A stretch of 64,000 nt of DNA from a virus, in IMG/VR virus record IMGVR_UViG_3300001846_000277, positions 3,664 to 67,663 of that record; one strand, 5' to 3'. The first letter of the stretch is position 1. Each line of letters starts with the position of its first letter. Below the pieces are notes generated by a model, which searched no databases, was not told the origin of the DNA, and saw nothing but the letters and a program-made list of their open reading frames with translations. Shown in pieces: positions 4,291-64,000 of this stretch. The position numbers and the translations under genes are program-made.

Positions 4291-6270
4291 ATGAGCGAAA
4301 AGGAATACATTGTCACACTTAAAAAAGGTGTGGACTATGATGCATTTAATGCAGAAATGATAGCGTCAACTGGGGCTGGCGATATTCCAAATAGAACAGT
4401 TGATGTAGCAAACGCAAGACCAGCTAGTCAGAGAAATACTCACTACAGTTTAACAGATGCTGAGGCAGCAGCATTACGCAATGACAGTAGAGTTGTAGAT
4501 GTTCAAATTCCTCCTCAAGATAGAGAAGATATAGAAATTGGCTTTCATGCTTATCAAAGTGGTGTATGGACACGAGACACTATTACACAGCAATCAAATT
4601 TAAATTGGGGTAATCTTCGTTGCACAAAAGTAAATGACCCATGGAATGGAAATACACTTACTGATATCAGCGACGACTACAAATACACTCTAACAGGTAG
4701 AGGTGTAGATGTTGTAATTCAAGACAGTGGTATACAACCAACTCATTGGCAGTTTACAAACGAATTTGGTGTAAGCAGAGTGCAACAAATAGATTGGTAT
4801 GCTGAAAGCGGTATAAGCGGCACACAAAGCGCCAATCACTATAGAGACTATAACGGACACGGATCACACTGTGCTGGCACCGTAGCAGGTCGCACATTGG
4901 GCTGGGCACGTGAAGCAAACATATATTCTGTAAAAGTTAATGGCTTAGAAGGTTCAGGCGATAGTGGAACTGGTATCAGTGTAACAAATTGCTTTGACGT
5001 TATTAAAGAATGGCACAACAGAAAACCAATAGATCCAAAAACAGGATTTAAGCGTCCTACAGTGGTCAATGCTAGTTGGGGTTATAGTGGAACAAGATCA
5101 GGAACATTAACCGGCGGTGTTTATAATGGACAAAGTTGGAGCACAGGAGCAGGTCAACCTTGGCCAGATACTGAAGCAAGTCATTTGGAATATGCAGGCA
5201 TTCACGGAAAATATTACTCATTAGGCCTTTCAAGACGTATTAACGTAAGAGTTGCAAGCGTTGATACAGACTTACAAGAATGTATAGATGCTGGTATTAT
5301 TTTCTGTATTGCAGCAGGAAACAGCTATTACTATATAGATAGTGCAACTGGACCAAATTGGAACGACACAGCTGATTTTGGAGCAGGGCAAGAAAATATT
5401 TTTAGAGGCAGTTCGCCATATGATACAGAAGCGTTCATGGTAGGAAACATTGATAATACTTACTACTTAGGTAAAGAACAAAAAGCAGAATCAAGTTGTT
5501 TTGGCCCAGGCGTAGATATAAATGCACCTGGGACGTATATTATGAGTTGTGCAAGTAGTGACAAAAGCGGAGCATGTGATTTAACCGATGGCACTGAGGC
5601 TAGTATTTCTACTGTCAACGACCCAGGATCAAATAGTGCAAGCGATCCTTTAATGAAAATATCAGGAACAAGTATGGCTTCACCACAGGTTGCTGGCATG
5701 GTTGCTTGTATACTACAAGCAAATCCCGGAATGACTCCTGCGCAAATAAAAACATATATACACAACAATAGTTTACAAGATCTGCTTTGGGAAGATACAA
5801 ATCACACCATAGTGGCAGATACATTTACAGCTTCTACCACTGTTGCTAACGGCACAACTGATTATACTTTTACAGCTGGCACAGATAGGAATGGTGCTGT
5901 CAGTGGAAACGATCCAACCATTACTATCTATCAAGGTGACACTATTGAAATTACAAATAGTACAGGCGCTCATCCTTTATATATTAAAACTGTCTCAGGT
6001 GTTGCAGATACAGCCAACCAAGTAACAACACCAGCAGCAACAGGACAGGGTGCTACAAATGGCACTGTTAGTTGGACACCTGCACTTCCAGGAAGATTTT
6101 ACTATCAGTGTAGTTCTCATGCAGACATGTGGGGTCAGATAGAAGTATTACCAAGAGTAGATTGGAATAATACTGACAACATAGGAGACGGTCCTAATAG
6201 GTATCTTTATTCACCATTGTTTAGCACAGGTGATAATATACAGTATAAAGGTCCTATTTCAAGAACTTAA
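4291..6270 (+). CDS. S8 subtilisin-like serine protease with C-terminal cupredoxin-like domain
   Basis: Catalytic motifs VVIQDSG, HGSHCAG, AAGN and GTSMASP; I9-like prodomain KEYIVTLK; C-terminal GAHPLYI...YYQCSSHADMWG. Confidence 0.9.
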   Translation: MSEKEYIVTLKKGVDYDAFNAEMIASTGAGDIPNRTVDVANARPASQRNTHYSLTDAEAAALRNDSRVVDVQIPPQDREDIEIGFHAYQSGVWTRDTITQQSNLNWGNLRCTKVNDPWNGNTLTDISDDYKYTLTGRGVDVVIQDSGIQPTHWQFTNEFGVSRVQQIDWYAESGISGTQSANHYRDYNGHGSHCAGTVAGRTLGWAREANIYSVKVNGLEGSGDSGTGISVTNCFDVIKEWHNRKPIDPKTGFKRPTVVNASWGYSGTRSGTLTGGVYNGQSWSTGAGQPWPDTEASHLEYAGIHGKYYSLGLSRRINVRVASVDTDLQECIDAGIIFCIAAGNSYYYIDSATGPNWNDTADFGAGQENIFRGSSPYDTEAFMVGNIDNTYYLGKEQKAESSCFGPGVDINAPGTYIMSCASSDKSGACDLTDGTEASISTVNDPGSNSASDPLMKISGTSMASPQVAGMVACILQANPGMTPAQIKTYIHNNSLQDLLWEDTNHTIVADTFTASTTVANGTTDYTFTAGTDRNGAVSGNDPTITIYQGDTIEITNSTGAHPLYIKTVSGVADTANQVTTPAATGQGATNGTVSWTPALPGRFYYQCSSHADMWGQIEVLPRVDWNNTDNIGDGPNRYLYSPLFSTGDNIQYKGPISRT

Positions 6271-7175
6271 ATTTGGTTTGCGTTAGCGATAAAGTTTTTA
6301 AAATTACTAATTCTAAATGTAATTCTATGTAAAACCCTTTTTGCAAGTATTTCAGGATCGTCTTGTGTGCGTTTATGCAATGTAAGTAATTGATCCATTA
6401 AAACAATATCTCCTGGTTGCCACCAATGCTCATAAATGTATTTGTCTTGGAAAAGATGATCTTTTAATTTTTGTTTTAGTGTTTCGTCTTTACTTACTAT
6501 GTCACATCTATTATTGGTATAAAAGTATAATCCTTCTACACCGGCAGTATTTTTTTGTTTTAGCCACATTTTATATGTAGTATTTTCTTGTGCTTTTTGG
6601 GCAAAGTGTTTGTATTCAGGAGCACCCTTTGCCCAAACATCAGGACGATATTCGTATATTGCATAAACATTTTCTATTTGCTCTTTTAGTTCAGGCGATA
6701 AGTCATTGTAGGCTAAATTTGTATTCAAAAACAGTGTGCTTGTATTTTCACAGTGTTCTACACCTTGCAGTGCAACGCCATCGGCTCTATCTAAACCATT
6801 CAAATTGGCATGCCAATCAAGTGTGCCTGAGCCAAAAATACCTGTGTGCTTATTGTTAATCTTTTTACCTGTAACCCGCTGGACAGGATAATTTGCCATA
6901 TCTGTGCAAGTCATAGGATCAATAAATCTATCCCAAGTATCTACATCATTACCATATTGATCCCATTTCATTTGTGACCAGTTAGATACGCTACCGCTCA
7001 TCAAGTGAATTAATTTAGTAAAACTGCCAGGACATTGTTTTTGATCTTTAAACACAACTACTAAACGCTCTTTAAGTATTTGAAATAGTTTGTCAGCTTG
7101 TGACTTATCTATATTTGTAATATCTATATCACTTACTTCTACTGCTACACCATTTTTTATTTCTTTAATTTGCAT
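6267..7175 (-). CDS. TauD/TfdA-family Fe(II)/2OG dioxygenase (H-x-N variant)
   Basis: LVVVFKDQ, LDWHAN, NTSTLF, HWWQPGDIVLMDQLLTLHKR match the TauD layout. Confidence 0.8.
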   Translation of the reverse strand: MQIKEIKNGVAVEVSDIDITNIDKSQADKLFQILKERLVVVFKDQKQCPGSFTKLIHLMSGSVSNWSQMKWDQYGNDVDTWDRFIDPMTCTDMANYPVQRVTGKKINNKHTGIFGSGTLDWHANLNGLDRADGVALQGVEHCENTSTLFLNTNLAYNDLSPELKEQIENVYAIYEYRPDVWAKGAPEYKHFAQKAQENTTYKMWLKQKNTAGVEGLYFYTNNRCDIVSKDETLKQKLKDHLFQDKYIYEHWWQPGDIVLMDQLLTLHKRTQDDPEILAKRVLHRITFRISNFKNFIANANQI

Positions 7176-7710
7176 TTGTCAAATCCTTATATATACCTAA
7201 GTCTTCAAACATTACATCATGCACAGCAATTCTAAACAATAATCTATCTTTTGTAGGCTCTGCTACACCATGAGATACTTGTGTATTAAGTATGGTTAAT
7301 GTTTGATATGTAAGCTCAAATTTTTCATTGTCTTTTTCGCATACTACGGGTCCTGTATTTTCACTTAATGGTAGTAAAAAAGCAACTTTGCTCATACCAT
7401 CTACGTGCATAGGCATACTGCCGCCTGCTTTAGTAAGAAAAAAATCAGCACGAAAATCTTTTGTATGAACTCCAAAATCTTTAAACAATTTCATAACAAA
7501 CTTTTTAAGTTTCATATCATAATTGCTAACATGTTTAATGTAATGATAGACCATTTCTCTGCCATACATAGTTTCTTGGTATTCTTCATGTTCGGCATAA
7601 AGTTTATTTGTGTCTACCCATTCTGTGTCATCCATATAAGGCGTAAAGAAATCAATGTCTCCTTTTATATCTGTTGTAATTACAAATGGATCAATTAATT
7701 CACAGTTCAT
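7165..7710 (-). CDS. Fe(II)/2OG oxygenase-like (cupin) protein
   Basis: Reads on the minus strand despite the track's '+'. ATG 7710 overlaps the upstream TGA (ATGA). Motifs MPMHVD...LNTQVSHGV...R. Confidence 0.7.
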   Translation of the reverse strand: MNCELIDPFVITTDIKGDIDFFTPYMDDTEWVDTNKLYAEHEEYQETMYGREMVYHYIKHVSNYDMKLKKFVMKLFKDFGVHTKDFRADFFLTKAGGSMPMHVDGMSKVAFLLPLSENTGPVVCEKDNEKFELTYQTLTILNTQVSHGVAEPTKDRLLFRIAVHDVMFEDLGIYKDLTNAN

Positions 7711-8339
7711 TTTGTTCTCCAATGGTTCCAAAAATCTTTAGTATCTTTTTTATTTAAATTTGCTACAGCAATAGTGTGCCAACATTGAGAATTATGAGGA
7801 TCAGGTGCAATCAAATAAGGACCTTCTGATAACTCCCATCTATACCTAGTAGCATTATTGAGTGCATCTATAAATTTATTAAAAAATGCGCTTGTTCTTA
7901 GTTCTCTAGATATAAAACAATTATCATATCCTAATCTTTTGGCCATTTCAATCTGCTGTTCTATAATATTAAATGTAGTAGGTCTCAAAATTTCTCTTGT
8001 AAAATTAATCCTTAATTTTTGGCTATCTTGATAGTATCTTGTAAGTATTCTAACATCATTTTCTCTATAAAAATCTCTTGTATAACCAGCACTAAAGCCA
8101 ACAATATTTTTATCTTGTTTGAGGCATGTAACAAACGGATAATCAAAAAAATCAAGATCAACATAATTTTTTATTAATCTATGATTGTCTTTTACTTGCA
8201 AAGATTTTGTATAGGTGTTTAATTCCTCTGTTAAATTAGGATATAATTTAGGTATAAAAGTTGTAACTTCTGCTGGTCTAGTATCAAAAGTAGTAGGACT
8301 AGATGAATAAAACAGATTGTGTGCTGTTTCACTAAACAT
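7707..8339 (-). CDS. putative GNAT-fold acyltransferase
   Basis: IVGFSAG...RILTRYY...IEQQIEMAKRLGYDNCFISRE resembles the GNAT strand/helix pattern. Start moved to ATG 8339, overlapping the upstream stop. Confidence 0.45.
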   Translation of the reverse strand: MFSETAHNLFYSSSPTTFDTRPAEVTTFIPKLYPNLTEELNTYTKSLQVKDNHRLIKNYVDLDFFDYPFVTCLKQDKNIVGFSAGYTRDFYRENDVRILTRYYQDSQKLRINFTREILRPTTFNIIEQQIEMAKRLGYDNCFISRELRTSAFFNKFIDALNNATRYRWELSEGPYLIAPDPHNSQCWHTIAVANLNKKDTKDFWNHWRTK

Positions 8340-9051
8340 ATAAATCCTCTTGTCCATTAAGTGAAATAACTAAATGTATTCTGCCTTCTGAACCGTTATT
8401 TTCTGCCCAATGAGTCATTCCAGTGTTTAAAAAATATACACTACCGTCAGCTGGCATATGCATTTTTTGCACTCCGTCTTTGTTTTTTACACAAAGGAAT
8501 GCATTTTCGTTTGTAACAATAGGTATATGCACACGTATGCTGTATGTAGTGTTATAGTCTATATGGGGCTTAATGCTATGTCCAGGCGCCATATAAGCGA
8601 AGCGTGTGCGTGTTACAGGCGCTTTAAACGTGTCTAGTATATGATTCCAATAACCAGTGCATATATCCTTGCGCTTGGTATATCTACGTTCATCCATCAC
8701 AGGATTATAACTAGGATCATCAGGATTAGTGCTTTTCCTATATGTAGTAATTCCCGTATCTTGTTCAAGTTTTCTTTCTGGTCTATCACCTTCAAACTCT
8801 GTTAAACTTAATTGCCTATAGAACTGGCTGCCTTTAGTAACATCTTCATTACTGTCTGCAAACTTTTTTAAATGGTCAAGTTTGGTGCTACTGTTATAAA
8901 AGTCGCCGTATGCACTATCAGGATTGCTTGCATTTAGATCATCATATAAATTAATATTTTCAAACTTTTTGAATTCTTCTAAAATCTTTTCTATATCAAA
9001 CTTGTATGATAAAACTTTAAAAGCAGGTAATTGTTTCCTATCTAATAGCAT
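8332..9051 (-). CDS. aspartyl/asparaginyl beta-hydroxylase-domain Fe(II)/2OG oxygenase
   Basis: RTRFAYMAPGHSIKPHID...RVHIPIVTN...VYFLNTGMTHWAENNGSEGRIHLVI. Confidence 0.8.
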   Translation of the reverse strand: MLLDRKQLPAFKVLSYKFDIEKILEEFKKFENINLYDDLNASNPDSAYGDFYNSSTKLDHLKKFADSNEDVTKGSQFYRQLSLTEFEGDRPERKLEQDTGITTYRKSTNPDDPSYNPVMDERRYTKRKDICTGYWNHILDTFKAPVTRTRFAYMAPGHSIKPHIDYNTTYSIRVHIPIVTNENAFLCVKNKDGVQKMHMPADGSVYFLNTGMTHWAENNGSEGRIHLVISLNGQEDLYV

Positions 9052-9781
9052 TTGCAATATTCCTTGCGATTACACTGTTAACATTAACATTAGGATGTAA
9101 TCCATCTCTTGAAAGATTTTCGGGGCTATGACCAAATACTTGATAGAATGGCAAATTTAAAAAATCAGCAACTTGTTCATGCCACGCCCATTCAAAAAGA
9201 TTTGCATCCTTTAAAAGTGTTCGTAATGTAATTGTATTATAAAAATGTTTGTGTGTCAATCTCTTTTCTACTTTCATCCATTCGTTATACAAAGAATAGC
9301 TTTCAGGAGCAAAACTGTCATTTTCTTCTAACCACGGACCTAAGTTTCCAGTTGATCCAATAGGATCCCAAATACGAGGCATACTCGGATGGCATAATAC
9401 AACGTCTTTGACTGGAACACTCCGCAGTAATGAACAAACTACTGCAATAAGAAATTCACTACTAGCACCTGGCACAGACATATTAACAACTTTTTTGCCA
9501 AGAATACTTTCTAATTGTTTTGGCACACAATGTTCATTTGGTCCTGCTAATCCAAATGTTGCACTATCTCCCAAGCATATAATACAATTATCCCAGTCTA
9601 TTTTTTCCCAGGCTTCTTCTCTATAACCATCTTTATTTCCAACATAAAAGATAGGCACACCAGTGTCAACCCAATCTCCATCAATAGCTTTCCAGTTTTT
9701 AGCGTTGTCATGAGGAGTGTCATTTAAAATATATTTTGCCTTGCCAGGTGGACAAACTCCAAACGGTAAATCTTTAAGCAT
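9038..9781 (-). CDS. SGNH/GDSL hydrolase-like protein
   Basis: CLGDSATFG, NMSVPGAS, RDGLHP. Confidence 0.65.
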   Translation of the reverse strand: MLKDLPFGVCPPGKAKYILNDTPHDNAKNWKAIDGDWVDTGVPIFYVGNKDGYREEAWEKIDWDNCIICLGDSATFGLAGPNEHCVPKQLESILGKKVVNMSVPGASSEFLIAVVCSLLRSVPVKDVVLCHPSMPRIWDPIGSTGNLGPWLEENDSFAPESYSLYNEWMKVEKRLTHKHFYNTITLRTLLKDANLFEWAWHEQVADFLNLPFYQVFGHSPENLSRDGLHPNVNVNSVIARNIANAIR

Positions 9782-10530
9782 TATATATTAAGCCTATCTA
9801 GCAAACAGTCGGTTATAACATTATTAACTGATAGATTAGAATGCCACCCGTCTCTTGCCATTTTATCAGCTTCTTGATACAAATATTTATAATACTGTAT
9901 ATCAAAATGTTCCTGCATATGTTCTTCCCATGTCCATTCCACCATATTAGCACTTCGCAACAGCGTTCTTATAGTGCGCAAATTTTCAGTGGCTTTGTGT
10001 ATTTGACGTTGAGGCAATGACATGAATTCCTTGAAATAAGCGTGTTGTCTTTCGCTATAAGGATCGCCAGGTGTAAGCCATAAACCTAAATTTCCAGTGC
10101 AACCAACAGGATCCCACATCCTAGACCAACTTGGATGATTCACAATTATATGCTTTATATCAATTTTATTCATAAGGCTACAAACAATACTGATCATAAG
10201 TTCGCTAGATGCACCTGGAATACACATGTTTACACATTCAATACCTGTTGCTTTTTCGATTAATTTGGGTATGGTATGATTTAATGGAATGCCAAGTCCA
10301 TAAGAAGCACTATCACCAATATAGATTATACAATTATTCCAATTTATCTTGTGCCATTCTTTTTCTCTATAGCCGTCTTTGTTGCCAACATACGATATTT
10401 CTTCTTGTGGTGCTTGCCATGATCCTGGTATTTTATCCCAACGTATTAGATTTTGCTTTGGATCATCGCTAAAAAGGTAAGTGCTTTTTGTTGAAGGAGT
10501 ATGACCAAATGGCATATTTTCAAACATCAA
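9781..10530 (-). CDS. SGNH/GDSL hydrolase-like protein (tandem paralog of 9038-9781)
   Basis: IGDSASYG, NMCIPGAS, RDGWHS; shares YVGNKDGYRE..W.KI.W.NCII and RMWDP.G.TGNLG.WL with the neighbour. Confidence 0.65.
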   Translation of the reverse strand: MMFENMPFGHTPSTKSTYLFSDDPKQNLIRWDKIPGSWQAPQEEISYVGNKDGYREKEWHKINWNNCIIYIGDSASYGLGIPLNHTIPKLIEKATGIECVNMCIPGASSELMISIVCSLMNKIDIKHIIVNHPSWSRMWDPVGCTGNLGLWLTPGDPYSERQHAYFKEFMSLPQRQIHKATENLRTIRTLLRSANMVEWTWEEHMQEHFDIQYYKYLYQEADKMARDGWHSNLSVNNVITDCLLDRLNI

Positions 10531-11140
10531 TTATCTCCTTGTATTTTTCATACCATTCTGAATAAGGAAAGTATATACTCATCTGTAAATTATATCTTTC
10601 GTGAGCGCCTTTATTCATGACGCCATGTAGTATTCTTGTATTCCATGCATATACTTTGTTTGTATTACAAGGAATGCCATATATTTTATTGTTGTAGTAA
10701 ATTTCCAAAGGAGTATAATCATCTCCTAAAGGATACAATGGTATATAGATATTGACATATCTGTTTGGATCTGCATGTGGCATAATATATGAATTTTTTG
10801 CAAGTTTTAAAAATGCAAAAGTTTGTATTTCTTCAAAAGGAGAAAATGTTTGCGTTATCCAATCACGTGCATCTCCTTGTTGTATGTCACATAAATTTAG
10901 TTCATAATAACTTTTATAATCTGCAACAAAAGCCAAGTCTCTTAATTTCTGTAAGATATCATCTGGAACAGTAAAAGGTAGTTCGGTGATAACATTACTG
11001 CGGATTTCTTCTGTCCATTCTTTTTCTAAAACGTTACGTCTAGCATTAGAATATTTGCCGTCATCGGTAAGAACATTTGTTCGAGCTTTTAACGCATCTT
11101 TGGCTATATCATCTAAAGTAGGAACATATTTTTCAGTCAT
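10520..11140 (-). CDS. Fe(II)/2OG oxygenase-like protein
   Basis: YIMPHAD...IYIPL...YAWNTRILHGVMN...RYNLQ. Confidence 0.7.
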   Translation of the reverse strand: MTEKYVPTLDDIAKDALKARTNVLTDDGKYSNARRNVLEKEWTEEIRSNVITELPFTVPDDILQKLRDLAFVADYKSYYELNLCDIQQGDARDWITQTFSPFEEIQTFAFLKLAKNSYIMPHADPNRYVNIYIPLYPLGDDYTPLEIYYNNKIYGIPCNTNKVYAWNTRILHGVMNKGAHERYNLQMSIYFPYSEWYEKYKEIIDV

Positions 11141-11822
11141 TTATTTGCTCCTTCAAGTAATTATAAACTTTACAATGGTTATCATAATTTAAATGACCTA
11201 CCCTTGTGTCAATACCGTTCATAATTTTAACATCATCTTCTTCGTCTAATTCACGTAAAACAATATTACTTACTACAAAATTGTCCTCTTGTAACAAGTC
11301 TTTTTGTTTTGTAGTAAAAGGATGCACAGGTATGAGTATGATCTTTTTACTTAGTTTTCTATACTTACTTATTGCACTTGCTATCTTAAAAGGTTCAGTT
11401 TCTAAATAGGTATTTTCTGTAAGAAACAATTTATACCACAAATCTAAAAATGTTGCATATCTGTTTTTATAGGTTTCATAATTTACATTTTTTTTACTTT
11501 GAGTAATACTCTTCAATCTATCACTTATACGTTTGCTTATACCTTTTACTTTGTCGTGCAAATACAAAAAACTATACACTTGATCTTTTGCTTCTAATCC
11601 TTGTAATGCTAAACGCAAATGATGTGGTAACACAAAAACAATTACATCGTTTTGATTAGATTCAAAATGTTCTATAAATTTTTTTAATTGTAAGTCAGGA
11701 CCACAACCTACTTGGGAATACACAGTTACATCAAAATCATTAGCTAACATATCCACCCATGTGGATTGTTCACTGTTACCATTTACTGCATAACTGTCGC
11801 CAAATATTATTACTTTTTGCAT
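11133..11822 (-). CDS. SGNH-like protein
   Basis: VIIFGDSYA, TVYSQVGCG, C-terminal GHLN. Confidence 0.55.
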   Translation of the reverse strand: MQKVIIFGDSYAVNGNSEQSTWVDMLANDFDVTVYSQVGCGPDLQLKKFIEHFESNQNDVIVFVLPHHLRLALQGLEAKDQVYSFLYLHDKVKGISKRISDRLKSITQSKKNVNYETYKNRYATFLDLWYKLFLTENTYLETEPFKIASAISKYRKLSKKIILIPVHPFTTKQKDLLQEDNFVVSNIVLRELDEEDDVKIMNGIDTRVGHLNYDNHCKVYNYLKEQIND

Positions 11823-18373: not shown

Positions 18374-18378
18374 AAACA

Positions 18379-18407
18379 TATTTATATGCGCACTTATTGG
18401 CTAAGTA
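18379..18407. promoter_or_regulatory. divergent late-promoter pair with extended motif
   Basis: Minus: AAGTGCGCATATAAATA (18395..18379). Plus: TAAGTA (18402-18407), 5 nt before ATG 18413. Confidence 0.65.
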
Positions 18408-18412
18408 TTTTT

Positions 18413-54238: not shown

Positions 54239-54254
54239 GTAAAACTCCTTACTA

Positions 54255-54302
54255 TATTTACAATCCATTAAGTATGTAGTTATTAAATCTGGTGGTTAAA
54301 TA
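54255..54302. promoter_or_regulatory. divergent late-promoter pair
   Basis: Minus TAAATA (54260..54255); plus TAAATA (54297-54302), 4 nt before ATG 54307. Confidence 0.6.
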
Positions 54303-54306
54303 CATT

Positions 54307-56726: not shown

Positions 56727-57442
56727 TTCATAAACTCTCTTGGATTAAAATCAAATACTTCATTTAATTTTTTTCTGTTACTTAGTTGAACACTAGCATT
56801 ATTATGTATTTTATTCCAGTAATCTTTGTTTTTTTTACTAATTTTTATATTCATCACTTTTTCAACGATTCTTACATGATCTAATATATCTGGATGAGAG
56901 TCTTGTAAAACTCCAAAAGATTTGCTGCCTTTTTCAGCTTTAAAATATTGCATTTCTGGTAATGTAGCAGCAAACTTATTATACAAATCATTTACTTCAG
57001 GTCCGGCTATATCTGTATCTTCCCAAGCAGAAGGAAAAGCACTTGCTTGAAATTTTATTAAATCTTTATATGTGCCATTTACATGATTTATAGCAGTAGT
57101 ATTTTTTACAATGTCGTGTTCCCAGGACCAAAAATACTTGTGATACTTGTTCCAAATACGTTCACCTATATTACTAAAGACGTTGCCATATTGTGCAAAG
57201 CCTTCGCCTAGTATTCTATCCTCACGATTCCAACTGGTCCATAGTATCATAATTTCATCATCTGATGTAAATTTATGCTTTACATCAGCTTCCATAATTC
57301 TATAGCTAATACCAACATTACCTATACCTGCTAAACCATAATTGTAAACTTGTGTGTCAGTTAATTCTCTATCTAAAATTTCAGGCCAACAAGGCCAATA
57401 GTAATGAGTAAAACTGCAACCAAATGTGAATAATCTGCGCAT
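56723..57442 (-). CDS. SGNH-like protein (GCS variant; paralog of 54827-55675)
   Basis: LFTFGCSFT, NYGLAGIGN, DSHP. Confidence 0.55.
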   Translation of the reverse strand: MRRLFTFGCSFTHYYWPCWPEILDRELTDTQVYNYGLAGIGNVGISYRIMEADVKHKFTSDDEIMILWTSWNREDRILGEGFAQYGNVFSNIGERIWNKYHKYFWSWEHDIVKNTTAINHVNGTYKDLIKFQASAFPSAWEDTDIAGPEVNDLYNKFAATLPEMQYFKAEKGSKSFGVLQDSHPDILDHVRIVEKVMNIKISKKNKDYWNKIHNNASVQLSNRKKLNEVFDFNPREFMK

Positions 57443-57451
57443 ATATTGCCT

Positions 57452-57474
57452 TAAATACTGTATGAATATTTATA
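57452..57474. promoter_or_regulatory. overlapping divergent late promoters
   Basis: Plus TAAATA (57452-57457), 4 nt before ATG 57462; minus TATAAATA (57474..57467) inside the first codons of the plus gene. Confidence 0.6.
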
Positions 57475-58463
57475 GTGTAAACGAATGGGATCCATTGAAA
57501 AAGGTTTGTGTTGGAGTCGCTGACTATTGCCGCATTCCTGAGATGGACGAAAGTTTGCGTGTAATAAATTACGCAGACAGACAGGATGTAAGTGATGTAA
57601 AGGCTGGTCTATATCCTGACCAAGTTGTAGAAGAATCAAACGAAGATCTTGAAACTTTTGTAAAGTTTTTAGAAGGCGAAGGGGTTGAAGTAGTCAGACC
57701 TAAGCGCACACCAGAAGTTGAATACTATAACTACTGCCCACGTGATACTGTATTTGTTCATGGCAACAGAGCTTTTGCTGCGCCAATGGCACTAGCAGCA
57801 AGAGAAACAGAATGGCGCCATCTACTGCCTGGTGTTGCTCCTATCGAAATAGGGCACCGCATAGACAGGACAGGATTATACGACGAATCATGTGTCGGAG
57901 ATCCGGATCGCCTTGCCCTCACTGAAGTAGCACCATGCTTTGACGCTGCTAATGCAATTAGAGCTAACGACGATATTTTGTATTTGGTAAGCAATAGTGG
58001 CAACAAAGCAGGTGCTGCTTATTTAAGCACATGGATAAACAAACCTGAAAATAATTTTTCTGAGCCAGGCAACATACGTGTTCATAGATTAGAAAATGTC
58101 TATAGTTATATGCACATTGACAGCACTATTGCGTTCTTACGTGAAGGATTACTACTTGCTAATCCAAGCAGAATTAAAAGTATGGATGTATTACCTGCGC
58201 CATTCAACACATGGGATGTAATTTGGGCACCGGATCCTGTTGATGCAGGACATTATCCAGGGCTATGCAATAGTAGTATTTGGACTTGGAATGTCAACTT
58301 GTTTAGTGTTAATCCTAATCTAGTTGTATTAGAAGAACATCAAGAACCAACTCGTAAAGCACTAGAAGCACACGGTATTGAATGTGCTATGCTACCACTG
58401 CGTCATGCTAGAACACTAGGTGGGTGTTTTCATTGTTGCACATTAGATCTTGTTAGAGGCTAA
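57462..58463 (+). CDS. amidinotransferase (glycine/inosamine-phosphate amidinotransferase-like)
   Basis: SVNEWDPLKKV.VG, YCPRD, MHIDST, GGCFHCCTLD; start moved to ATG 57462. Confidence 0.85.
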   Translation: MNIYSVNEWDPLKKVCVGVADYCRIPEMDESLRVINYADRQDVSDVKAGLYPDQVVEESNEDLETFVKFLEGEGVEVVRPKRTPEVEYYNYCPRDTVFVHGNRAFAAPMALAARETEWRHLLPGVAPIEIGHRIDRTGLYDESCVGDPDRLALTEVAPCFDAANAIRANDDILYLVSNSGNKAGAAYLSTWINKPENNFSEPGNIRVHRLENVYSYMHIDSTIAFLREGLLLANPSRIKSMDVLPAPFNTWDVIWAPDPVDAGHYPGLCNSSIWTWNVNLFSVNPNLVVLEEHQEPTRKALEAHGIECAMLPLRHARTLGGCFHCCTLDLVRG

Positions 58464-59219
58464 TAATTGATCCGTGGTTTGTCTGTGAAATTCAACTCCG
58501 TCATGCATACAATCTCTAGCCTCCATGCTTCCTGACGTAGGATTAATATATTGCATATCAACACTTAATAAAAAATCTAGTTCTCCTTCCCAAGTAAAGT
58601 TTACAACAGGAACTCCTAAACTTTGCCATACTAGATTGAAGCTTTCAATACTTGCAAACACAGATTTTTTAAGTTCTCCTATGTCTTGAATGTATCTTTT
58701 GCTCCACCATTTTCCGTCGATTGATCTTGTTCCACTCATATCTTTCCAACGAATACTACCATCATCATCTTCAAATCCAAATTGTTTTCTTGTAATCTGT
58801 GGCCACTGTGCTACTACTAATTTTGGCAAGGGTAAATTATTTAATTTCCATAAAAGACTGTTAAAATGTAGAACTTCAGGACTACTAGCTTGTTTTCCTA
58901 TATTGACTAAATCAAGTTGCAACTCATTTGCTAACATACTACACCATATATCTTCAGTGTTTAACCCAACACCCTCTGTATAACTACATCCAGTTGCAAG
59001 TAGGAAAGGTTTTGAAATGTCATTTATTTCTTGCGTTCGATAACCTAGGCTGTTAAAATCATATCGAATTGTTTCTTTATGATATTTCCAGTCTTTTGGC
59101 ATTTTTTTACAATTCTTTTTATATTCGTCTTGATCGTCGGTTGAGAAAAAATACATGCTTTTACCGTTTGTTTCTTGATCAACTAGCAAAGGACTATTTT
59201 TTTGAAAAAAGAGGGCCAT
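58443..59219 (-). CDS. SGNH-like protein (GCS variant)
   Basis: LLATGCSYTEG, NIGKQASS, RDCMHDG; GGAG SD before ATG 59219. Confidence 0.55.
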   Translation of the reverse strand: MALFFQKNSPLLVDQETNGKSMYFFSTDDQDEYKKNCKKMPKDWKYHKETIRYDFNSLGYRTQEINDISKPFLLATGCSYTEGVGLNTEDIWCSMLANELQLDLVNIGKQASSPEVLHFNSLLWKLNNLPLPKLVVAQWPQITRKQFGFEDDDGSIRWKDMSGTRSIDGKWWSKRYIQDIGELKKSVFASIESFNLVWQSLGVPVVNFTWEGELDFLLSVDMQYINPTSGSMEARDCMHDGVEFHRQTTDQLLASNKI

Positions 59220-59234
59220 AAAAATTACTCCAAA

Positions 59235-59254
59235 TAAATAACTACGTATATTTA
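59235..59254. promoter_or_regulatory. overlapping divergent late promoters
   Basis: Plus TAAATA (59235-59240); minus TAAATA (59254..59249); both genes have GGAG SDs. Confidence 0.55.
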
Positions 59255-59271
59255 AAAATATCGGAGTCATA

Positions 59272-60639
59272 GTGTCTTATAACTGGTTTAACTGTCTATA
59301 TTTTAGTCCAAGAAACAAATGCTTGCCTGAGCTAATAATGCAAGATGGTAATAGAGCACCGTTGCGACAAATAAGTAAAATAGAAATGCTTATGGATATT
59401 ACCAAAGAAAGTTTTGTTGGTAAATTTAAAGAACCATTGATTATCTATAATGGCACCCATAATATTCCTAATTTAGATAAACTTTTTATAAGCGATACAC
59501 ACACCAACATTTTGAAAACTCAGCGTGTGCATTTTTTCTTTATGGAAGTGCTTACACACTATATTCCTAATCCGTGGGGAAAACTAGAACCACATATTCT
59601 TAAAATTGACAACGAGCCTGAAAAATTAAACAAAATTAGATGCTACGAACTTGATACATTAAATCAATGGGCAAAAGAAAATGATATAGATTTGTATGTA
59701 TACTGCACTGATCATAAAAGTTGGGAATATTATCAAAAAATATATCCTAACATAAAATTAAGAAGCATGGATTTATTTGTAAGTTGGTATAGTAGTAGAT
59801 TTCAATTACAAGAAGAATATAACAGAAGTGGCATGCTTCCAGGTGATATCTATCCAGTTATAGAATATAAAAAAATTAGAAAGAAGTTTTTTAGTGGATC
59901 ATGGAGATATGATCCAAGTAGACATTTTATTACAGCATTTCTTGCAAGCGAAGGATTGACAAAAGATAACGAGATTAGTTTTTATCATAAATCAAGCAAC
60001 GAAGATATGATTGCAAATATGTGGTTTGATTGGGAAAAGTTTGCAAATAAACATCCTGCTATGAGTCAATCATTATTAAAAGGAAATGAATTATTGCAAC
60101 CACAACTTCCTTTGAGTTTTGAAGTTAAAAATCCTATATCTTGCGATTTAAAACAAGGCGATCCTGATTACAATACGCCAGGCATGTATAACAGACGTAG
60201 AACACAAGATCCATATAAAACCTACGAACGTGTATTTTGCGCAATCATAAACGAAAGTAGAGTTACTCAACCTTGGCCAAATGTCAGCGAAAAGACACTT
60301 AATGCAATGAAAAGTTTTAGACCATTTGTTTTAGTAGCAGCACCACACACATTAAAATATTTGAAAGAAATGGGATACAAAACATTCAGTGACTTTTGGC
60401 CTGAAGATTATGATGATATACAATGCACAAGCGACAGATTAGTAGAAGTTTGTAATACTATAAAATATATCGATTCATTTAGTATAGAAGATTGTAGAAA
60501 AATTTACAAAAAATTGATACCAAGGTTAATGCACAATTATAATGTTTTGCAAAAGAATTATAAATGGTTTGATGAATACAATTTAAAATTAGATTCCCAA
60601 AGTTCATCAGCCCAGTATGTATGTGCAGGCAATCTATGA
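59272..60639 (+). CDS. putative GT-B glycosyltransferase, paralog 4 of 4 (GTG start)
   Basis: AIINESR, VSEKTLNA, PFVLV, LKEMGYKTF...EDYDD. Confidence 0.5.
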   Translation: MSYNWFNCLYFSPRNKCLPELIMQDGNRAPLRQISKIEMLMDITKESFVGKFKEPLIIYNGTHNIPNLDKLFISDTHTNILKTQRVHFFFMEVLTHYIPNPWGKLEPHILKIDNEPEKLNKIRCYELDTLNQWAKENDIDLYVYCTDHKSWEYYQKIYPNIKLRSMDLFVSWYSSRFQLQEEYNRSGMLPGDIYPVIEYKKIRKKFFSGSWRYDPSRHFITAFLASEGLTKDNEISFYHKSSNEDMIANMWFDWEKFANKHPAMSQSLLKGNELLQPQLPLSFEVKNPISCDLKQGDPDYNTPGMYNRRRTQDPYKTYERVFCAIINESRVTQPWPNVSEKTLNAMKSFRPFVLVAAPHTLKYLKEMGYKTFSDFWPEDYDDIQCTSDRLVEVCNTIKYIDSFSIEDCRKIYKKLIPRLMHNYNVLQKNYKWFDEYNLKLDSQSSSAQYVCAGNL

Positions 60640-61316
60640 TGCCAATACATTTGTCCTTCAACACTGTATCCTTGGTTTAGACAATTTTCAAAAAAGCTGT
60701 AATTTTCATCGTCCCAATATAAAAAATTTTCTTTGTCAATTTTATCAGCATAATATTTGTATCTTTTGGAATTTTCACATGCTTGAAAACTATTCCTAAA
60801 TGTATAACTTAAACTATTTGCTTTAAAAAAACTTTGTAATTCAATTATATTCATATACCTGTTTATTTGCCATTGCACAGGATTAATAAAAAGATGTTTG
60901 CTTAATGAATCTAAATTTTTGCGTATAGCAACTGGAGCCCAATCAGGATAATGCTGTGGATGTAAGTGTAAAACTTTTTTATCTGGTGAATAAGGAATAA
61001 ATTTGTTTAAATTATATCTGTTTCTATCCCAATGATCATAAAAATATTCAGTGCGTTCAGCACCTGTCCAGTTAATAAAAAAATGTGTTGTTTTTGCTTT
61101 TTCAGGGTTATCTAATATCCAAAGCAATGTTGTTCTTTTGATGTAATCATTGCTACCACCAGGCATTGCAATATTTGTATACTTCCAACCAAGCTTCTTT
61201 GCAATTTGAGCTGAATAACAATTTTCTCTATTGTAATTGCCTTCGCCTATACCGCTGCCTTCAATTTCACTTCCGGCTGTGTGACTACATCCATTGATAA
61301 ACAAATGATCAAACAT
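60558..61316 (-). CDS. SGNH-like protein (GCS variant)
   Basis: LFINGCSHTAG, NIAMPGGSN, C-terminal HH...AH. Confidence 0.55.
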   Translation of the reverse strand: MFDHLFINGCSHTAGSEIEGSGIGEGNYNRENCYSAQIAKKLGWKYTNIAMPGGSNDYIKRTTLLWILDNPEKAKTTHFFINWTGAERTEYFYDHWDRNRYNLNKFIPYSPDKKVLHLHPQHYPDWAPVAIRKNLDSLSKHLFINPVQWQINRYMNIIELQSFFKANSLSYTFRNSFQACENSKRYKYYADKIDKENFLYWDDENYSFFENCLNQGYSVEGQMYWHHRLPAHTYWADELWESNFKLYSSNHL

Positions 61317-62277
61317 TTACAGGTTCCTTTGGGATAATTATATCAGTTCCACAATGACAATGTTGTTTACTACATATAACTGGTTGCAAATCAAATGTCA
61401 AGTGTTCATCTAATATATTTCCGTGATTATTGCCTACACCACAACTTGCACTACTAATATCGCCACGTGGATTGATAAAAAGTGCATCATCTACAAAACA
61501 CTTCCAACCAGCAAAAAAGTTTTGTCGTGCAGCAATAATTTTATTGCTGTTTACAGGTTCTATACCTGTGTCGTAGTGTGCATTACTAATTGCTTTGTTT
61601 TGTCTATAAGGTTTTGGAATAGTTTGCACACTTTCAAATTGTGCTTGTTCTAAAAATTCCACTTTTGCAAGATCTTTGTATTCCCACGGTCCTGCGTTGA
61701 CACTCATTTCATCAAACAATGGCGTCCATTCTAAATTGTAATTTGGCACTTCTTTGCGCACACGTTCACCAAACTCTTTTACTTCCCAAAACCGTTCTTC
61801 GTGCATCAGCATCTTTGTGCAAAGATAATCAACTTTGTCGCATAAAAATTGTGCATTTTCAATATAACGATCTTTTTTGCTAAACTCTACATGAAAACTT
61901 GCAACAATGTCATCAAACAAGTGATAATGCTGTTCCCAATAACGCAAAGGTCTTGACAGATTTGTGTTTACCGCAACCGTAAGACTATCTCCTAATTCTG
62001 ATTTCAAATATTCAGTAAGCGGAATAAAGTTTTCCCAATGTGTGGGTTCTCCTCCGCTGTAGAATATTTTGAAATACTTGTAGCCTCTGTCTTGATATTG
62101 TTGGAAAATATTTCTTACATTTTGTTTGTAAGTATCAAGTGCTCCATTGTTGCGATTGTCTCCTGCCCAGTTTCCTGGATTGCAATAGCTACACTGGAAG
62201 TTACAAAAGTTATTCACTTGCCATGTGATAGTAGCATACGGTTCTGCCATTGGTGTGATTTTAAGTAAATTAGACAT
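61309..62277 (-). CDS. radical SAM enzyme, type B
   Basis: WQVNNFCNFQCSYC; GGEP; WKC...SC...C....C.C..D. Confidence 0.9.
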   Translation of the reverse strand: MSNLLKITPMAEPYATITWQVNNFCNFQCSYCNPGNWAGDNRNNGALDTYKQNVRNIFQQYQDRGYKYFKIFYSGGEPTHWENFIPLTEYLKSELGDSLTVAVNTNLSRPLRYWEQHYHLFDDIVASFHVEFSKKDRYIENAQFLCDKVDYLCTKMLMHEERFWEVKEFGERVRKEVPNYNLEWTPLFDEMSVNAGPWEYKDLAKVEFLEQAQFESVQTIPKPYRQNKAISNAHYDTGIEPVNSNKIIAARQNFFAGWKCFVDDALFINPRGDISSASCGVGNNHGNILDEHLTFDLQPVICSKQHCHCGTDIIIPKEPVNV

Positions 62278-63553
62278 ATGCTCTTAGCCACTCCAACTCT
62301 GGAAACGTTGCCCAAAAATCTTCTTTGCGATGTTGATCTAATCCATGATTCTTTTCAAAAAATTGTTTTAGTTTAACAGTATCAAGTTTGCCTGTGTTCA
62401 TAAATTGTATAACACTATCAATCTTTCCTAATACATCTTTTACCACATCAGGCTTTGTGGCAATACGATCTTTGATTTTGTCATATGCCCATGCTTTGTA
62501 ATCAATATACTTGCTGCGTAATTCTATTTTAAAATCATTGGGTATACTATCTAATCTCATAAAGTCAGGATCTGTAAGCATGTTTAATCTACAATTTTCA
62601 ATGTCTACTAATCCACGTTCTACCCAGTCCTGATGAAAGTCTGGCCAATTCCATGCATTGTATAAACTAATAGTAGGCGTAAGTTCAAAGTGTATGTTTG
62701 GCAATTCCTCAAGCATTTCTTGTCTATTGCGCTCTACAGTTTCCCAATGTGTTCCGTGTCGCATGAATTCTGCTCTTGAACCCATTGCATCTAAACTTGC
62801 ACTAACTTGAATATCAGGAAATTCTCGCCAATAATCAATAATACTTTTTTGCTTAAATCTTAAATTACTGAAGTTTGTGGTATAGCGTAATCTTACATCT
62901 GTTTTGCCAGTTTCAATCCAATGATCTAAAATCTTATAGTGTTCGTTTGTAATCAGTGGCTCACCACCTGCCCAGTATACTTCTTCAACATCAGGCAAGT
63001 ATTGCTGCAATTCATCCCAAAAGTTTTTGTGCTTTGCAACATTAACAATAATGCTGCCGTTGTTTTTAAGTATGTTTGCAACTTCGTGTTTACCATATAG
63101 CTCACCATGTTCTTGTGCATGTAAACTGCTCAACTCAGGTCCGCATGTCCTACACTTCATATTGCAAATATTGCTGAAACGTATGTCCATGTATGCCATG
63201 CGCATTTCGTCAATGCTGCCATCAGCATTTGTTTTTTCTACCAAATCAAAATGCTTATCACCAAACCACTGATTGTGATTTTTGCGCAATGTCCAAATGT
63301 AAGTGCTGTCTTCAAGTTCATAGCAACGTCTACAGCAATCCAGTTTTTCGCCTTTTAGCATAGCAAGACGTAGTTCTCGATACTTGTCGCTGTTCCATAC
63401 TTCTGCGATAGTGTTTTCTTTTACATTGCCAAAAGGTTGATCACTATCTGCAATACAACAAGGCATAGCCCTGCCATCAGGCCAGGCGTGCATGTGTATC
63501 CAAGGCAAGATACAGAACGCTTTATTCTTTTTTAATAAATGTTCTTTATCCAT
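62270..63553 (-). CDS. radical SAM enzyme, type A
   Basis: FCILPW...PCC...C..C; CNMKCRTC; GGEP. Confidence 0.9.
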   Translation of the reverse strand: MDKEHLLKKNKAFCILPWIHMHAWPDGRAMPCCIADSDQPFGNVKENTIAEVWNSDKYRELRLAMLKGEKLDCCRRCYELEDSTYIWTLRKNHNQWFGDKHFDLVEKTNADGSIDEMRMAYMDIRFSNICNMKCRTCGPELSSLHAQEHGELYGKHEVANILKNNGSIIVNVAKHKNFWDELQQYLPDVEEVYWAGGEPLITNEHYKILDHWIETGKTDVRLRYTTNFSNLRFKQKSIIDYWREFPDIQVSASLDAMGSRAEFMRHGTHWETVERNRQEMLEELPNIHFELTPTISLYNAWNWPDFHQDWVERGLVDIENCRLNMLTDPDFMRLDSIPNDFKIELRSKYIDYKAWAYDKIKDRIATKPDVVKDVLGKIDSVIQFMNTGKLDTVKLKQFFEKNHGLDQHRKEDFWATFPELEWLRAYV

Positions 63554-64000
63554 TTAATAATCCTGCAAGTTCTGGGAATGTCTCGATAAAATTCTCATTG
63601 CGAATTTTATCACGTCTAATAGTATTATGTATAAACTCTTTACCGTGTTCTTCCCAAGTATGAGCACTGGTTGCAAAACGCATTGCATTTTCTACATGCT
63701 GCACACACCAGTATTCGTCTTTGATTTGATTGATTAGTTTTAACAATCCTAATGTGCCTTTTTCTTTTTCTTCTGGTGGCAAGTTTTGCGCACTGTAAAA
63801 ACTTGGATTTAGCAAATGATAAATGCTGATATAATCGTGTTTGCGAAGCAAATCTTTATCAATCATATAAGTGAAAAAATCACCTAGTGTGACATAATTC
63901 AAGTTGCTTAACACACAGTTAAATTGATAATTAATAAAGTCTACATCTCTAATTTTGCGTAAATTGTTTTCTACTGTATGCCATTTAGTGCCATTGCGTA
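63546..64000 (-). CDS. C-terminal part of another type A radical SAM enzyme (runs off window)
   Basis: The frame is open to the window edge (RNGTKWHTVENNL...) and ends RDKIRNENFIETFPEL, like the other type A C-termini. The CxxxCxxC motif is outside the window. Confidence 0.7.
   Translation of the reverse strand, partial: RNGTKWHTVENNLRKIRDVDFINYQFNCVLSNLNYVTLGDFFTYMIDKDLLRKHDYISIYHLLNPSFYSAQNLPPEEKEKGTLGLLKLINQIKDEYWCVQHVENAMRFATSAHTWEEHGKEFIHNTIRRDKIRNENFIETFPELAGLLNG

Follow-up and report, generated by a model that had tools for sequence, protein, structure and literature searches.

A radical SAM-rich enzyme island in the fibre region of an aquatic, probably jumbo, phage: a candidate glycan-tailoring pathway

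Why would a phage keep a long run of radical S-adenosylmethionine (rSAM) enzymes, oxygenases and sugar-type enzymes beside its tail-fibre genes, and what could they make together? The question is raised by a stretch of 64,000 nucleotides (nt) from IMG/VR virus record IMGVR_UViG_3300001846_000277, comprising bases 3664-67663 of that 71.7-kb record and hereafter called the window. Positions 6267-64000 hold 63 tightly packed open reading frames (ORFs), which we call the island, and seven genes flank it. An initial annotation, made from the sequence alone, had counted ~64 such genes and read them as a candidate system for decorating virion proteins or glycans, or for making another product. Our analysis shows the island to be a functional pathway of the cytoplasm, nearly all of whose enzymes are soluble, situated in the fibre (host-recognition) region. 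With a probability of roughly one half, we favour a soluble pathway that builds and tailors glycans in the cytoplasm and probably decorates virion proteins before lysis. The glycan-centred part of the initial proposal is thereby supported in part, namely by five glycosyltransferase (GT) folds, the sugar-nucleotide enzymes and the SGNH-like proteins.

Enzymes that point to sugar-type substrates

Homology was drawn from Pfam (matches reported at E<0.01), NCBIfam, all-versus-all BLASTP, motifs, ESM Atlas, two AlphaFold models and iterated local hidden Markov models (HMMs), the last used for the AspH-like, SGNH-like, GT-B and amidinotransferase-like families. Genes are named below by their start positions (table 1). 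There are 21 rSAM genes in the window (20 ORFs by Pfam PF04055 plus one cut at the right edge, as initially counted) and 23 in the contig. Each of the 23 keeps the CxxxCxxC motif and matches PF04055 at E<0.01, with three scoring below the gathering cut-off. BLASTP sorts them into four architectures: A (11 genes), with an N-terminal cysteine domain ahead of the rSAM core; B and B* (eight genes together), of ~300-370 amino acids (aa) with a C-terminal cysteine tail; C (three genes), with a C-terminal SPASM domain; and a single B12-binding enzyme. No specific NCBIfam family was matched by the B, C and B12 types. PDB sequence searches with the rSAMs gave generic matches only, including the cyclopropyl synthase 8vpo, and the peptide maturases SkfB and CteB-like were among the closest.

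The A-type enzymes belong to a defined family, NF033640 (N_Twi). Five score 196-394 bits against a cut-off of 170, and the remaining six were placed in the family by BLASTP and alignment alone. Across the alignment of all 11 paralogs the N-terminal cysteines C21, C39, C96 and C99, the CxxxCxxC motif and a GGE motif are invariant. The N-terminal domain aligns to the twitch domain of BtrN, a 2-deoxy-scyllo-inosamine dehydrogenase; the likeness is confined to this domain, which is C-terminal in BtrN but N-terminal in the island enzymes. A profile search of 1.84 billion representative proteins (50% identity clusters) returned 8413 N_Twi clusters at E<=1e-30. Among sampled genomes, members occur in 3-4 of the 401 from Bacteroidota and in 1-2 of the 301 from Cyanobacteriota, mostly in clusters of two to four copies, and no member above the cut-off was found in 14 control genomes. 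The best-scoring representatives (P0124-P0159) are mostly tandem fusions of two N_Twi units, ~800 aa long, which suggests that the enzymes work in pairs. A complex prediction for the A-type 49351 and the B-type 48446 scored 0.00, speaking neither for nor against binding.

Natural fusions and bacterial gene neighbours give the clearest view of what N_Twi enzymes may act on. In P0132, two N_Twi domains are fused to a GT-A domain of the 46299 type, and the gene adjoins an AspH-like gene; in P0252, the partner is an FkbM-type methyltransferase (PF05050). A cyanobacterial protein of 1597 aa (G553, L180:9475-14268) joins an N_Twi domain (~292-697) to a class III aminotransferase (~1120-1450) resembling glutamate-1-semialdehyde aminomutase and aminoglycoside C-6' aminotransferases, and has two further segments. 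A second N_Twi gene adjoins this fusion gene. In three Bacteroidota clusters (G086, G158 and G290), N_Twi paralogs accompany an SGNH family common with the phage, PhyH/WelO5 oxygenases and B12-rSAMs; further genes there encode a carbamoyltransferase and a methyltransferase, and one of the clusters has a GT-C enzyme. Judged from these sequences, the fusions and neighbours point to sugar-type chemistry and not to peptides. One cluster of this kind (in G086, where a GDSL protein accompanies the N_Twi rSAMs, PhyH oxygenases and B12-rSAMs) also encloses an 842-aa protein (L170:16076-18604) with a Peptidase_S74 chaperone and a type IX secretion system (T9SS) sorting domain. Such an S74 or fibre-like neighbour was rejected as a general N_Twi partner, being absent from the two other bacterial clusters and from the phage records.

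The layout of the window bears on the same question. Including the flank genes, it is 99.0% coding, and among its 70 genes just four intergenic gaps exceed 40 nt (203, 72, 51 and 43 nt) and two exceed 60 nt. No short precursor peptide genes are present, and no RRE or PqqD domain was matched by Pfam in the 70 ORFs at E<0.01, a search that could miss divergent RREs. A peptide substrate is disfavoured because there is no room for precursor genes and no RRE/PqqD match. We therefore favour substrates that are rich in hydroxyl and amine groups, of a sugar type and handled in the cytoplasm. For at least some A-type enzymes an oxidise-then-transaminate logic like that of BtrN and BtrS is plausible by analogy. 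The only sizeable non-coding stretch of the island (203 nt, 32334-32536) has no Rfam match; the whole window gave no Rfam match and no transfer RNA by ARAGORN, and the contig has no terminal repeat.

Sugar-type enzymes accompany the rSAMs. The AlphaFold2 (AF2) model of 46299 matches LH3, COLGALT1, glycogenin, PBCV-1 A64R and GT8 enzymes in the PDB, and a GT2-like protein in the AlphaFold database (AFDB; 2e-18). The GT-B fold matches of 51323 include T4 beta-glucosyltransferase, and ESM Atlas gave weak leads (0.79-0.81) for both proteins. Eight SGNH-like proteins carry G(D/C)S and DxxH blocks. The initial inventory is off by no more than one or two genes in any class. The eight SGNH-like proteins were recovered by iterated HMM, the five GTs by predicted fold (four GT-B, one GT-A), the two amidinotransferase-like proteins by ESM Atlas and local HMM, and the dehydratase and desaturase by Pfam; the QueC-like enzyme stands on its SGGADS motif as the sole basis. 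Other counts shrank. Seven of the ~10 proposed Fe/2-oxoglutarate (2OG) oxygenases are supported by Pfam or local HMM, the other three showing an HxD...H motif by eye alone, and the three methyltransferases come down to one weak Pfam match. One of two nitroreductase-like proteins was matched by Pfam, as was one of two pyridoxal phosphate (PLP) enzymes, the short DegT protein; their proposed partners were not confirmed. In 18386 an SLSK motif, by eye, suggests a PLP enzyme.

An expansion between fibres and baseplate

The left end of the contig encodes an RNaseH-like 5'-3' exonuclease, an AAA/MoxR ATPase and an N4 gp25-like DUF2201 metallopeptidase/VWA protein, followed by an Mtd_N fibre and a subtilase. 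IMG/VR holds 307 related stretches with the DUF2201 gene and 53 contigs with an ortholog of 49351. In syntenic relatives of 117-374 kb, a tail fibre borders the island on one side, and more fibres, a giant virion protein and a baseplate of RaK2 type lie on the other. The 170-kb relative G001 shows the whole arrangement: ATPase, DUF2201 protein, fibre and S8 protease on the left, then a 61-kb island with 21 rSAM matches, then three tail-fibre-like proteins, a 4581-aa protein, a baseplate wedge, a hub/lysozyme, an SbcC-like protein and a portal. Its wedge is gp6-like (phrog_10646, E 3e-294). It shares 33-37% identity with the wedges of Salicola SCTP-2, Agrobacterium Atu_ph07 and Klebsiella RaK2 over 93-97% of its length, and with that of Xanthomonas XaC1 over nearly all of it. 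In RaK2 the order is likewise ATPase and gp25-like protein, then giant virion protein and wedge, with only ~14 kb between. Wedge homology and gene order are thus seen in G001, whereas the window's own contig holds the ATPase/gp25-like side alone. CheckV completeness is 21% for the 71.7-kb contig and 32-48% for relatives of 117-170 kb, implying a genome of ~340-385 kb, for which we adopt an estimate of ~340-375 kb; a 374-kb JGI contig bears the conserved block in the same order. Homology and synteny lead us to see the island as having expanded within the fibre/baseplate region of an uncultured aquatic myovirus, probably a jumbo phage, of the RaK2-like supergroup.

The phage origin proposed at the outset is borne out by the left-end genes and by G001. 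The island was also expected to continue beyond the right edge, and it does: three more rSAM genes follow in the contig, counting the edge-cut 63546, bringing the island to at least 61 kb and ~65 genes. Both genes named as fibre-like hold up, one by its Mtd_N match (2718-4280) and the other (35736-37592) as a repeat-rich protein, with one short motif common to both (E 0.002). The claim that most genes sit behind T4-late-type motifs fails. TATAAATA occurs within 60 nt upstream of only 5 of the 70 genes in the window (0.35 expected) and ATAAATA upstream of 9; in G001, TATAAATA precedes 4 of the 65 island genes, 1 of the 18 structural genes and none of the 78 genes on the left. The motif is commoner than chance predicts yet marks a minority of genes, and control of most genes by late promoters is not supported.

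Relatives carry 11-22 rSAM genes. Searches of isolated phages (tblastn with rSAM A and B) gave few, distant matches: RsoM2USA, Vibrio phages K566 and K567, and Campylobacter and Fusobacterium phages. Considered as a match, the 'moraphage' jumbo lineage (PMC12619734) was rejected, being a different group described in a paper that never mentions radical SAM.

The island has two parts of different history. Genes of 38909-61316 are conserved in dozens of related loci, and G001 has orthologs for most genes from 37592 to the contig end; 6267-33000 is nearly strain-specific, most of its genes having zero to six orthologs among 133 related loci. Within the conserved part, a mirror cassette sets A-B-B-B* (40416-44539) facing B*-B-A (47404-50730), with an rSAM C, an AspH-like oxygenase and the GT-A protein enclosed between them. 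BLASTP similarities across the mirror are 4e-50 (41659/48446), 1e-46 (43442/47404) and 1e-42 (40416/49351). The AspH-like 45578 and GT-A 46299 genes overlap by 29 nt, and the pair is present twice in G001. A sugar block (50727-61316) follows, in which GT-B and SGNH genes alternate around the dehydratase, DegT and amidinotransferase genes, and then a run of five rSAM genes. In orthologs from relatives, dN/dS (the ratio of non-synonymous to synonymous rates) is 0.04-0.30 for island genes and 0.07-0.23 for backbone genes, so that the island is under purifying selection comparable to the backbone. In the N_Twi tree, one-to-one orthologs of the window and G001 sit on very short branches, paralogs are separated by more than one change per site, and sequences from bacteria branch among them at three or more points. 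Short ortholog and long paralog branches indicate that the paralogs are old and individually conserved and not a recent arms-race expansion.

At least two independent DNA studies also contain the conserved block at a high share. In one metatranscriptome a ~93% relative is represented by contigs that span 28 of the 30 bins of 40416-60400 at a depth of 1-9, rising to ~110 on the amidinotransferase gene (57426-58463); this unevenness, seen in contigs and not in reads, argues for RNA over DNA carry-over. As the lone + strand gene among - strand genes, 57426 probably has its own strong promoter. The same ~93% relative (DNA run X6, RNA run X20) lacks GT-B gene 52389-53348 and has twenty other letters in place of 52399-53345, which indicates gene-level presence and absence inside a conserved block.

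What the island may make

In the pathway that we favour, the conserved right half (38909-67837) would activate and alter nucleotide sugars through the 4,6-dehydratase/epimerase, the short DegT protein, the two amidinotransferase-like proteins and the PP-loop amidotransferase-like protein. The four GT-B and one GT-A transferases would assemble the sugars, and the SGNH proteins would acylate or deacylate them. The N-terminal-twitch rSAMs may act like BtrN, oxidising or activating C-H/C-OH positions of the sugars, with the B, B* and C types and the B12-rSAM adding further changes at carbon, and the AspH and TauD oxygenases would hydroxylate the acceptor or the sugars. Recurring A-B-B* cassettes could be units that each install one modification, and the left half (6267-33000) could vary the product through enzymes of these same types that differ from strain to strain. 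Attachment of this product to phage structural proteins (fibres) before lysis is the most speculative step. Virion proteins would be the most likely acceptor because of the fibre-gene position, the missing export genes, the soluble enzymes and a GT-A model that resembles protein GTs and is paired with an AspH-like hydroxylase. Such a target is plausible by analogy with collagen hydroxylysine glycosylation and with virus-encoded virion glycosylation. We more tentatively entertain, and on balance doubt, a bolder form, a new carbohydrate chemistry driven by radical SAM enzymes, in which modular A, B and B* cassettes would each add a different carbon-level modification to an amino/guanidino sugar chain, giving either a strain-variable glycan coat on the fibres with no cellular counterpart or a released aminoglycoside-like compound.

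Several points weigh against a glycan pathway of this kind. Twenty-three rSAMs are far above any known sugar pathway, and a literature search found no characterised NF033640 member, so that a BtrN-like role is an analogy only. The GT fold matches are partial, with TM-scores of 0.2-0.3 for GT-A and 0.4-0.47 for GT-B; no sugar nucleotidyltransferase was recognised in the island, and ~12 ORFs have no assignment. The AspH-like enzymes, the desaturase and weak Tes-like rSAM matches would also fit lipids, and proteins themselves can be substrates of GT-A/2OG pairs and of amidinotransferase-superfamily enzymes. Evidence for use has its own limit, as carried-over DNA could in principle be among the metatranscriptome contigs.

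Lipids and surface glycans lead to an alternative that we consider unlikely, though a real contender: the enzymes may alter the lipopolysaccharide, capsule or membrane lipids of the infected host, supplying its export machinery with altered sugars or with acyl chains that are hydroxylated and desaturated, which would block superinfection or stop newly freed virions from adhering to debris. LpxO, which hydroxylates lipid A, belongs to the AspH family, SGNH proteins frequently act as O-acetyl enzymes on glycans, the island has a membrane desaturase-like gene, and its content is hypervariable among relatives in the manner of O-antigen loci. Envelope remodelling has also been proposed for the GTs of pelagimyophage host-recognition clusters, where rSAM cassettes are mentioned (PMC7029224). 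Yet the island has no initiating polyprenyl-phosphate transferase, flippase, polymerase or ligase (no Pfam match to Wzx-, Wzy- or WecA-like proteins or to a transporter) and no protein with several transmembrane helices save the desaturase, and it sits within the virion structural region, not among early genes. The fibre genes that bracket it suit a different proposal, the direct modification of structural proteins with no glycan involved. Residues of the fibres or the giant protein would be hydroxylated, epimerised, methylated or cross-linked by the rSAM and 2OG enzymes, possibly in the manner of RiPPs (peptides made by the ribosome and modified after translation), the precursor being a large protein. 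AspH itself hydroxylates proteins, the GT-A model is similar to LH3 and COLGALT1, which modify collagen, the closest solved or NCBIfam rSAM matches include peptide maturases (8vpo, SkfB and CteB-like), and one Bacteroidota N_Twi cluster adjoins the secreted S74 protein. This proposal would leave five GTs and the sugar-nucleotide enzymes unexplained, however; the natural N_Twi fusions are to sugar or small-molecule enzymes, the S74 neighbour is confined to one of three bacterial clusters with none in phage records, and RRE/PqqD domains and short precursor genes are missing. We judge it quite improbable.

We give still less credence to a diffusible guanidino/amino pseudo-oligosaccharide, akin to an aminoglycoside, that inhibits competing phages or neighbouring cells. 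The DegT protein, BtrN-like twitch rSAMs, GT-B enzymes, B12-rSAM methylase and StrB1-like amidinotransferases do recall aminoglycoside clusters, as does the C-6' aminotransferase-like partner in the cyanobacterial fusion, and the authors of the S-SCSM2R genome call a comparable mini-cassette 'antibiotic synthesis genes' (PMC12801897). But no sugar-phosphate cyclase (2-deoxy-scyllo-inosose or inositol-phosphate synthase) was matched by Pfam in the window, where ~12 ORFs lack assignment, neither an exporter nor a self-resistance gene was recognised, and it is not obvious why genes for a secreted metabolite would lie among those for fibres. Hypermodification of phage DNA, with glycosylated, aminated or 7-deazaguanine-type bases made by the GTs, the QueC-like enzyme and rSAMs, is very improbable. 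It could account for the PP-loop QueC-like protein, one rSAM with a weak QueE-like match and the T4 beta-glucosyltransferase resemblance, but Pfam finds no FolE, QueD, DpdA/TGT, base hydroxymethylase or nucleotide kinase in the island, and its scale and enzyme types are unlike known DNA pathways.

Some flanking and interspersed genes show further variation. The subtilase has 659 aa against 963-969 aa in the closest relatives (L057-L059 and L063-L065), lacking residues ~158-470 of the long form (~310 aa) between flanks that are 91-97% identical. The C-terminal domain of the 741-aa repeat protein is a stand-alone protein of 221-228 aa in several relatives, and at locus L027 a repeat protein of this type is divergently paired with a fibre-like gene, as in the window. 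The DegT protein, ~200 aa long, corresponds roughly to the N-terminal half of a normal DegT, a length kept under purifying selection in relatives and in S-SCSM2R (L175:11305-11892).

Table 1. Genes of the window, with the basis of each assignment (E-values unless stated otherwise).
Feature	Position	Strand	Basis and remarks
DUF2201 metallopeptidase + VWA-like, N4 gp25-like	1-1146	+	Pfam PF13203 1e-38, PF09967 1e-14; >300 IMG/VR contigs; ATPase + gp25-like pair also in RaK2
Tail-fibre-like; hypervariable region begins	2718-4280	+	Pfam Mtd_N 9e-13; repeated C-terminal fibre motif; only 7/80 relatives at >=50% identity
Subtilase (S8)	4291-6270	+	Pfam PF00082 1e-31
TauD/TfdA-type Fe/2OG dioxygenase	6267-7175	-	Pfam PF02668 2e-25
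AspH-like Fe/2OG oxygenase, divergent	7165-7731	-	Iterated local HMM 3e-24; no Pfam match
Protein without Pfam match	7707-8357	-	
AspH-like Fe/2OG oxygenase	8332-9057	-	Pfam PF05118 2e-12
SGNH-like	9038-9781	-	Weak Pfam GDSL_2 2e-4; local HMM 8e-44; GDS + DxxH blocks
SGNH-like, paralog of 9038	9781-10530	-	43% identity to 9038; local HMM 2e-46
AspH-like Fe/2OG oxygenase, divergent	10520-11140	-	Local HMM 5e-23
Weakly SGNH-like	11133-11822	-	Local HMM 1e-10; GDS block
Membrane fatty-acid-desaturase-like; sole island protein with clear transmembrane helices	11810-12490	-	Pfam PF00487 5e-10; transmembrane scan
Small protein without Pfam match; HxD...H by eye	12501-12956	+	
AspH-like Fe/2OG oxygenase	12942-13586	-	Pfam PF05118 8e-5; local HMM 6e-29
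Nitroreductase-family	13574-14347	-	Pfam PF00881 8e-7
rSAM A (N-terminal twitch, NF033640)	14317-15342	-	NCBIfam 1e-57, 196 bits (cut-off 170); Pfam
rSAM B	15329-16450	-	Pfam PF04055 7e-14; BLASTP clustering
rSAM A (NF033640)	16485-17681	-	NCBIfam 1e-87
SGNH-like	17678-18379	-	Local HMM 1e-18; GCS block
Protein without Pfam match; SLSK motif by eye only suggests PLP enzyme	18386-19255	+	
Protein without Pfam match	19244-20233	-	
rSAM A (NF033640)	20214-21344	-	NCBIfam 1e-63
rSAM A	21313-22491	-	Pfam 3e-13; alignment of A-type paralogs
Protein without Pfam match; HxD...H by eye	22464-23357	-	
B12-binding rSAM, class B methyltransferase-like	23391-24857	-	Pfam B12-binding 1e-8 + Radical_SAM 3e-15; weak NCBIfam PhpK / RiPP C-methyltransferase
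Possible methyltransferase, weak	24857-25486	-	Pfam Methyltransf_24 0.0019, below cut-off
rSAM A, 40% identity to 49351	25473-26894	-	Pfam; BLASTP 5e-131
rSAM C (C-terminal SPASM)	26903-27904	-	Pfam Radical_SAM 1e-12, SPASM 9e-5
rSAM C	27904-28983	-	Pfam 1e-7; BLASTP to 44493 1e-47
DUF6614	29027-29356	+	Pfam PF20319 2e-24
Second amidinotransferase-like	29310-30533	+	Local HMM seeded on 57426, 3e-97
Protein without Pfam match	30523-31026	+	
Weakly ATE_C-like (aminoacyl-tRNA transferase fold)	31012-31479	-	Pfam PF04377 1.5e-4, below cut-off
rSAM B	31419-32333	-	Pfam 4e-12
Protein with C-terminal half paralogous to 50727	32537-33478	-	BLASTP 4e-35
741-aa repeat protein, five ~100-aa repeats + ~225-aa C-terminal domain	33438-35663	-	Translation; no Pfam or PDB match
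Repeat-rich fibre-like, inside island; no conserved copy in G001	35736-37592	+	Translation; motif common with 2718
Protein without Pfam match; 56% ortholog in G001	37592-38260	+	
AspH-like Fe/2OG oxygenase	38226-38882	-	Pfam 1e-4; local HMM 8e-49
Conserved protein, HxD...H by eye; conserved core starts	38909-39715	+	22 orthologs at >=54%; dN/dS 0.09
PP-loop ATPase, QueC-like	39734-40429	+	SGGADS motif + C-terminal Cys cluster; no Pfam match
rSAM A, first of mirror cassette A-B-B-B*	40416-41675	+	Pfam; BLASTP to 49351
rSAM B, mirror partner 48446	41659-42603	+	Pfam 2e-10; BLASTP
rSAM B	42591-43487	+	Pfam 3e-11
rSAM B*, mirror partner 47404	43442-44539	+	Pfam 5e-14; BLASTP
rSAM C	44493-45539	-	Pfam 4e-7
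AspH-like Fe/2OG oxygenase, overlaps 46299	45578-46327	+	Pfam 1e-9
GT-A-fold glycosyltransferase-like	46299-47456	+	AF2 predicted local distance difference test (pLDDT) 92; PDB + AFDB fold matches
rSAM B*	47404-48453	-	Pfam 6e-5, below cut-off; CxxxCxxC
rSAM B with C-terminal Cys-rich tail	48446-49354	-	Pfam 3e-12; alignment: invariant C242, C261, C282, C287, C289
rSAM A (NF033640)	49351-50730	-	NCBIfam 6e-118; >3700 close homologs in metagenomes
Conserved protein, 50 orthologs	50727-51332	-	
GT-B-fold glycosyltransferase-like	51323-52411	-	AF2 pLDDT 87; top 50 PDB matches all GT-B enzymes
GT-B paralog	52389-53348	-	BLASTP 7e-45
NDP-sugar epimerase/4,6-dehydratase	53327-54268	-	Pfam PF01370 1e-37, PF16363 1e-35
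Short DegT-family, 200 aa	54292-54894	+	Pfam 2e-18; 200 aa in G001
SGNH-like	54827-55675	-	Local HMM 4e-69
GT-B paralog	55668-56726	-	Local HMM 2e-95
SGNH-like	56723-57442	-	Local HMM 2e-64
Amidinotransferase/DDAH-superfamily	57426-58463	+	ESM Atlas 0.94-0.96; 63% identity to S-SCSM2R 'inosamine amidinotransferase'
SGNH-like	58443-59270	-	Local HMM 4e-71
GT-B paralog with N-terminal extension	59272-60639	+	Local HMM 9e-122
DUF6071 / SGNH-like	60558-61316	-	Pfam PF19547 3e-10; local HMM 1e-53
rSAM B	61309-62277	-	Pfam 5e-7
rSAM A (NF033640)	62270-63553	-	NCBIfam 2e-116
rSAM A, cut by window edge (406 aa in contig)	63546-64000	-	Pfam on contig; then two more rSAM A + one further gene to contig end

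Known relatives of the island and its meaning

Several described systems come close. T4-like pelagimyophages and cyanomyophages carry a large non-syntenic host-recognition island in their structural region (Zaragoza-Solas et al. 2020, PMC7029224), for which glycosyltransferases and radical SAM cassettes are mentioned in the pelagimyophages. That hypervariable island averages 45 kb and sits in a T4-like backbone; the present one covers at least 61 kb in a RaK2-like jumbo phage and is dominated by rSAMs (23) and oxygenases (~10). The study gives no gene-level analysis or function for its cassettes. In cyanophage S-SCSM2R, ORF301-310 (PQ898602; PMC12801897) were read as antibiotic synthesis genes without tests. 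They share with the island 2OG oxygenases, several GTs, a DegT-like protein of ~196 aa, an rSAM and the amidinotransferase related to 57426, but span ~8 kb on one strand, with a single rSAM and away from fibre genes. The bacterial N_Twi clusters (Bacteroidota G086, G158 and G290; cyanobacterium G553) have two to four N_Twi paralogs, the SGNH family, Fe/2OG enzymes, B12-rSAMs and a methyltransferase in common with the island; they are rare and much smaller, with PhyH/WelO5 instead of AspH and an extra carbamoyltransferase.

PBCV-1 and Mimivirus encode the glycosylation of their own virions. Virion glycosylation is also described in Che8-type mycobacteriophages (Freeman et al. 2023, as related in PMC12619734). 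Soluble viral GTs and sugar-nucleotide enzymes near structural genes, with no export, are features of these systems and of the island alike. The known systems have a few GTs and no rSAM enzymes, and the island is a candidate for such a role. Literature searches found only passing mentions of phage rSAM islands, none describing one of such size and none assigning a function to NF033640, in line with the initial remark that no phage pathway this large has been characterised. The island is an extreme form of a known but uncharacterised kind of phage island.

With 23 genes in ~61 kb, this is the densest viral radical SAM gene set that we found, and it belongs to a widespread aquatic jumbo-phage lineage, one paralog (49351) alone having more than 3700 close metagenome homologs. 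What makes it of high interest is that neither a very large enzyme family nor a sixth of a jumbo-phage genome can yet be tied to a product. Solving one A-B-B* cassette would annotate thousands of phage and bacterial genes and would probably reveal new sugar radical chemistry. For phage biology, virion decoration, the rewriting of the host surface and an antibiotic-like product are each a testable possibility for why large marine phages devote a sixth of their genome to chemistry beside the fibres.

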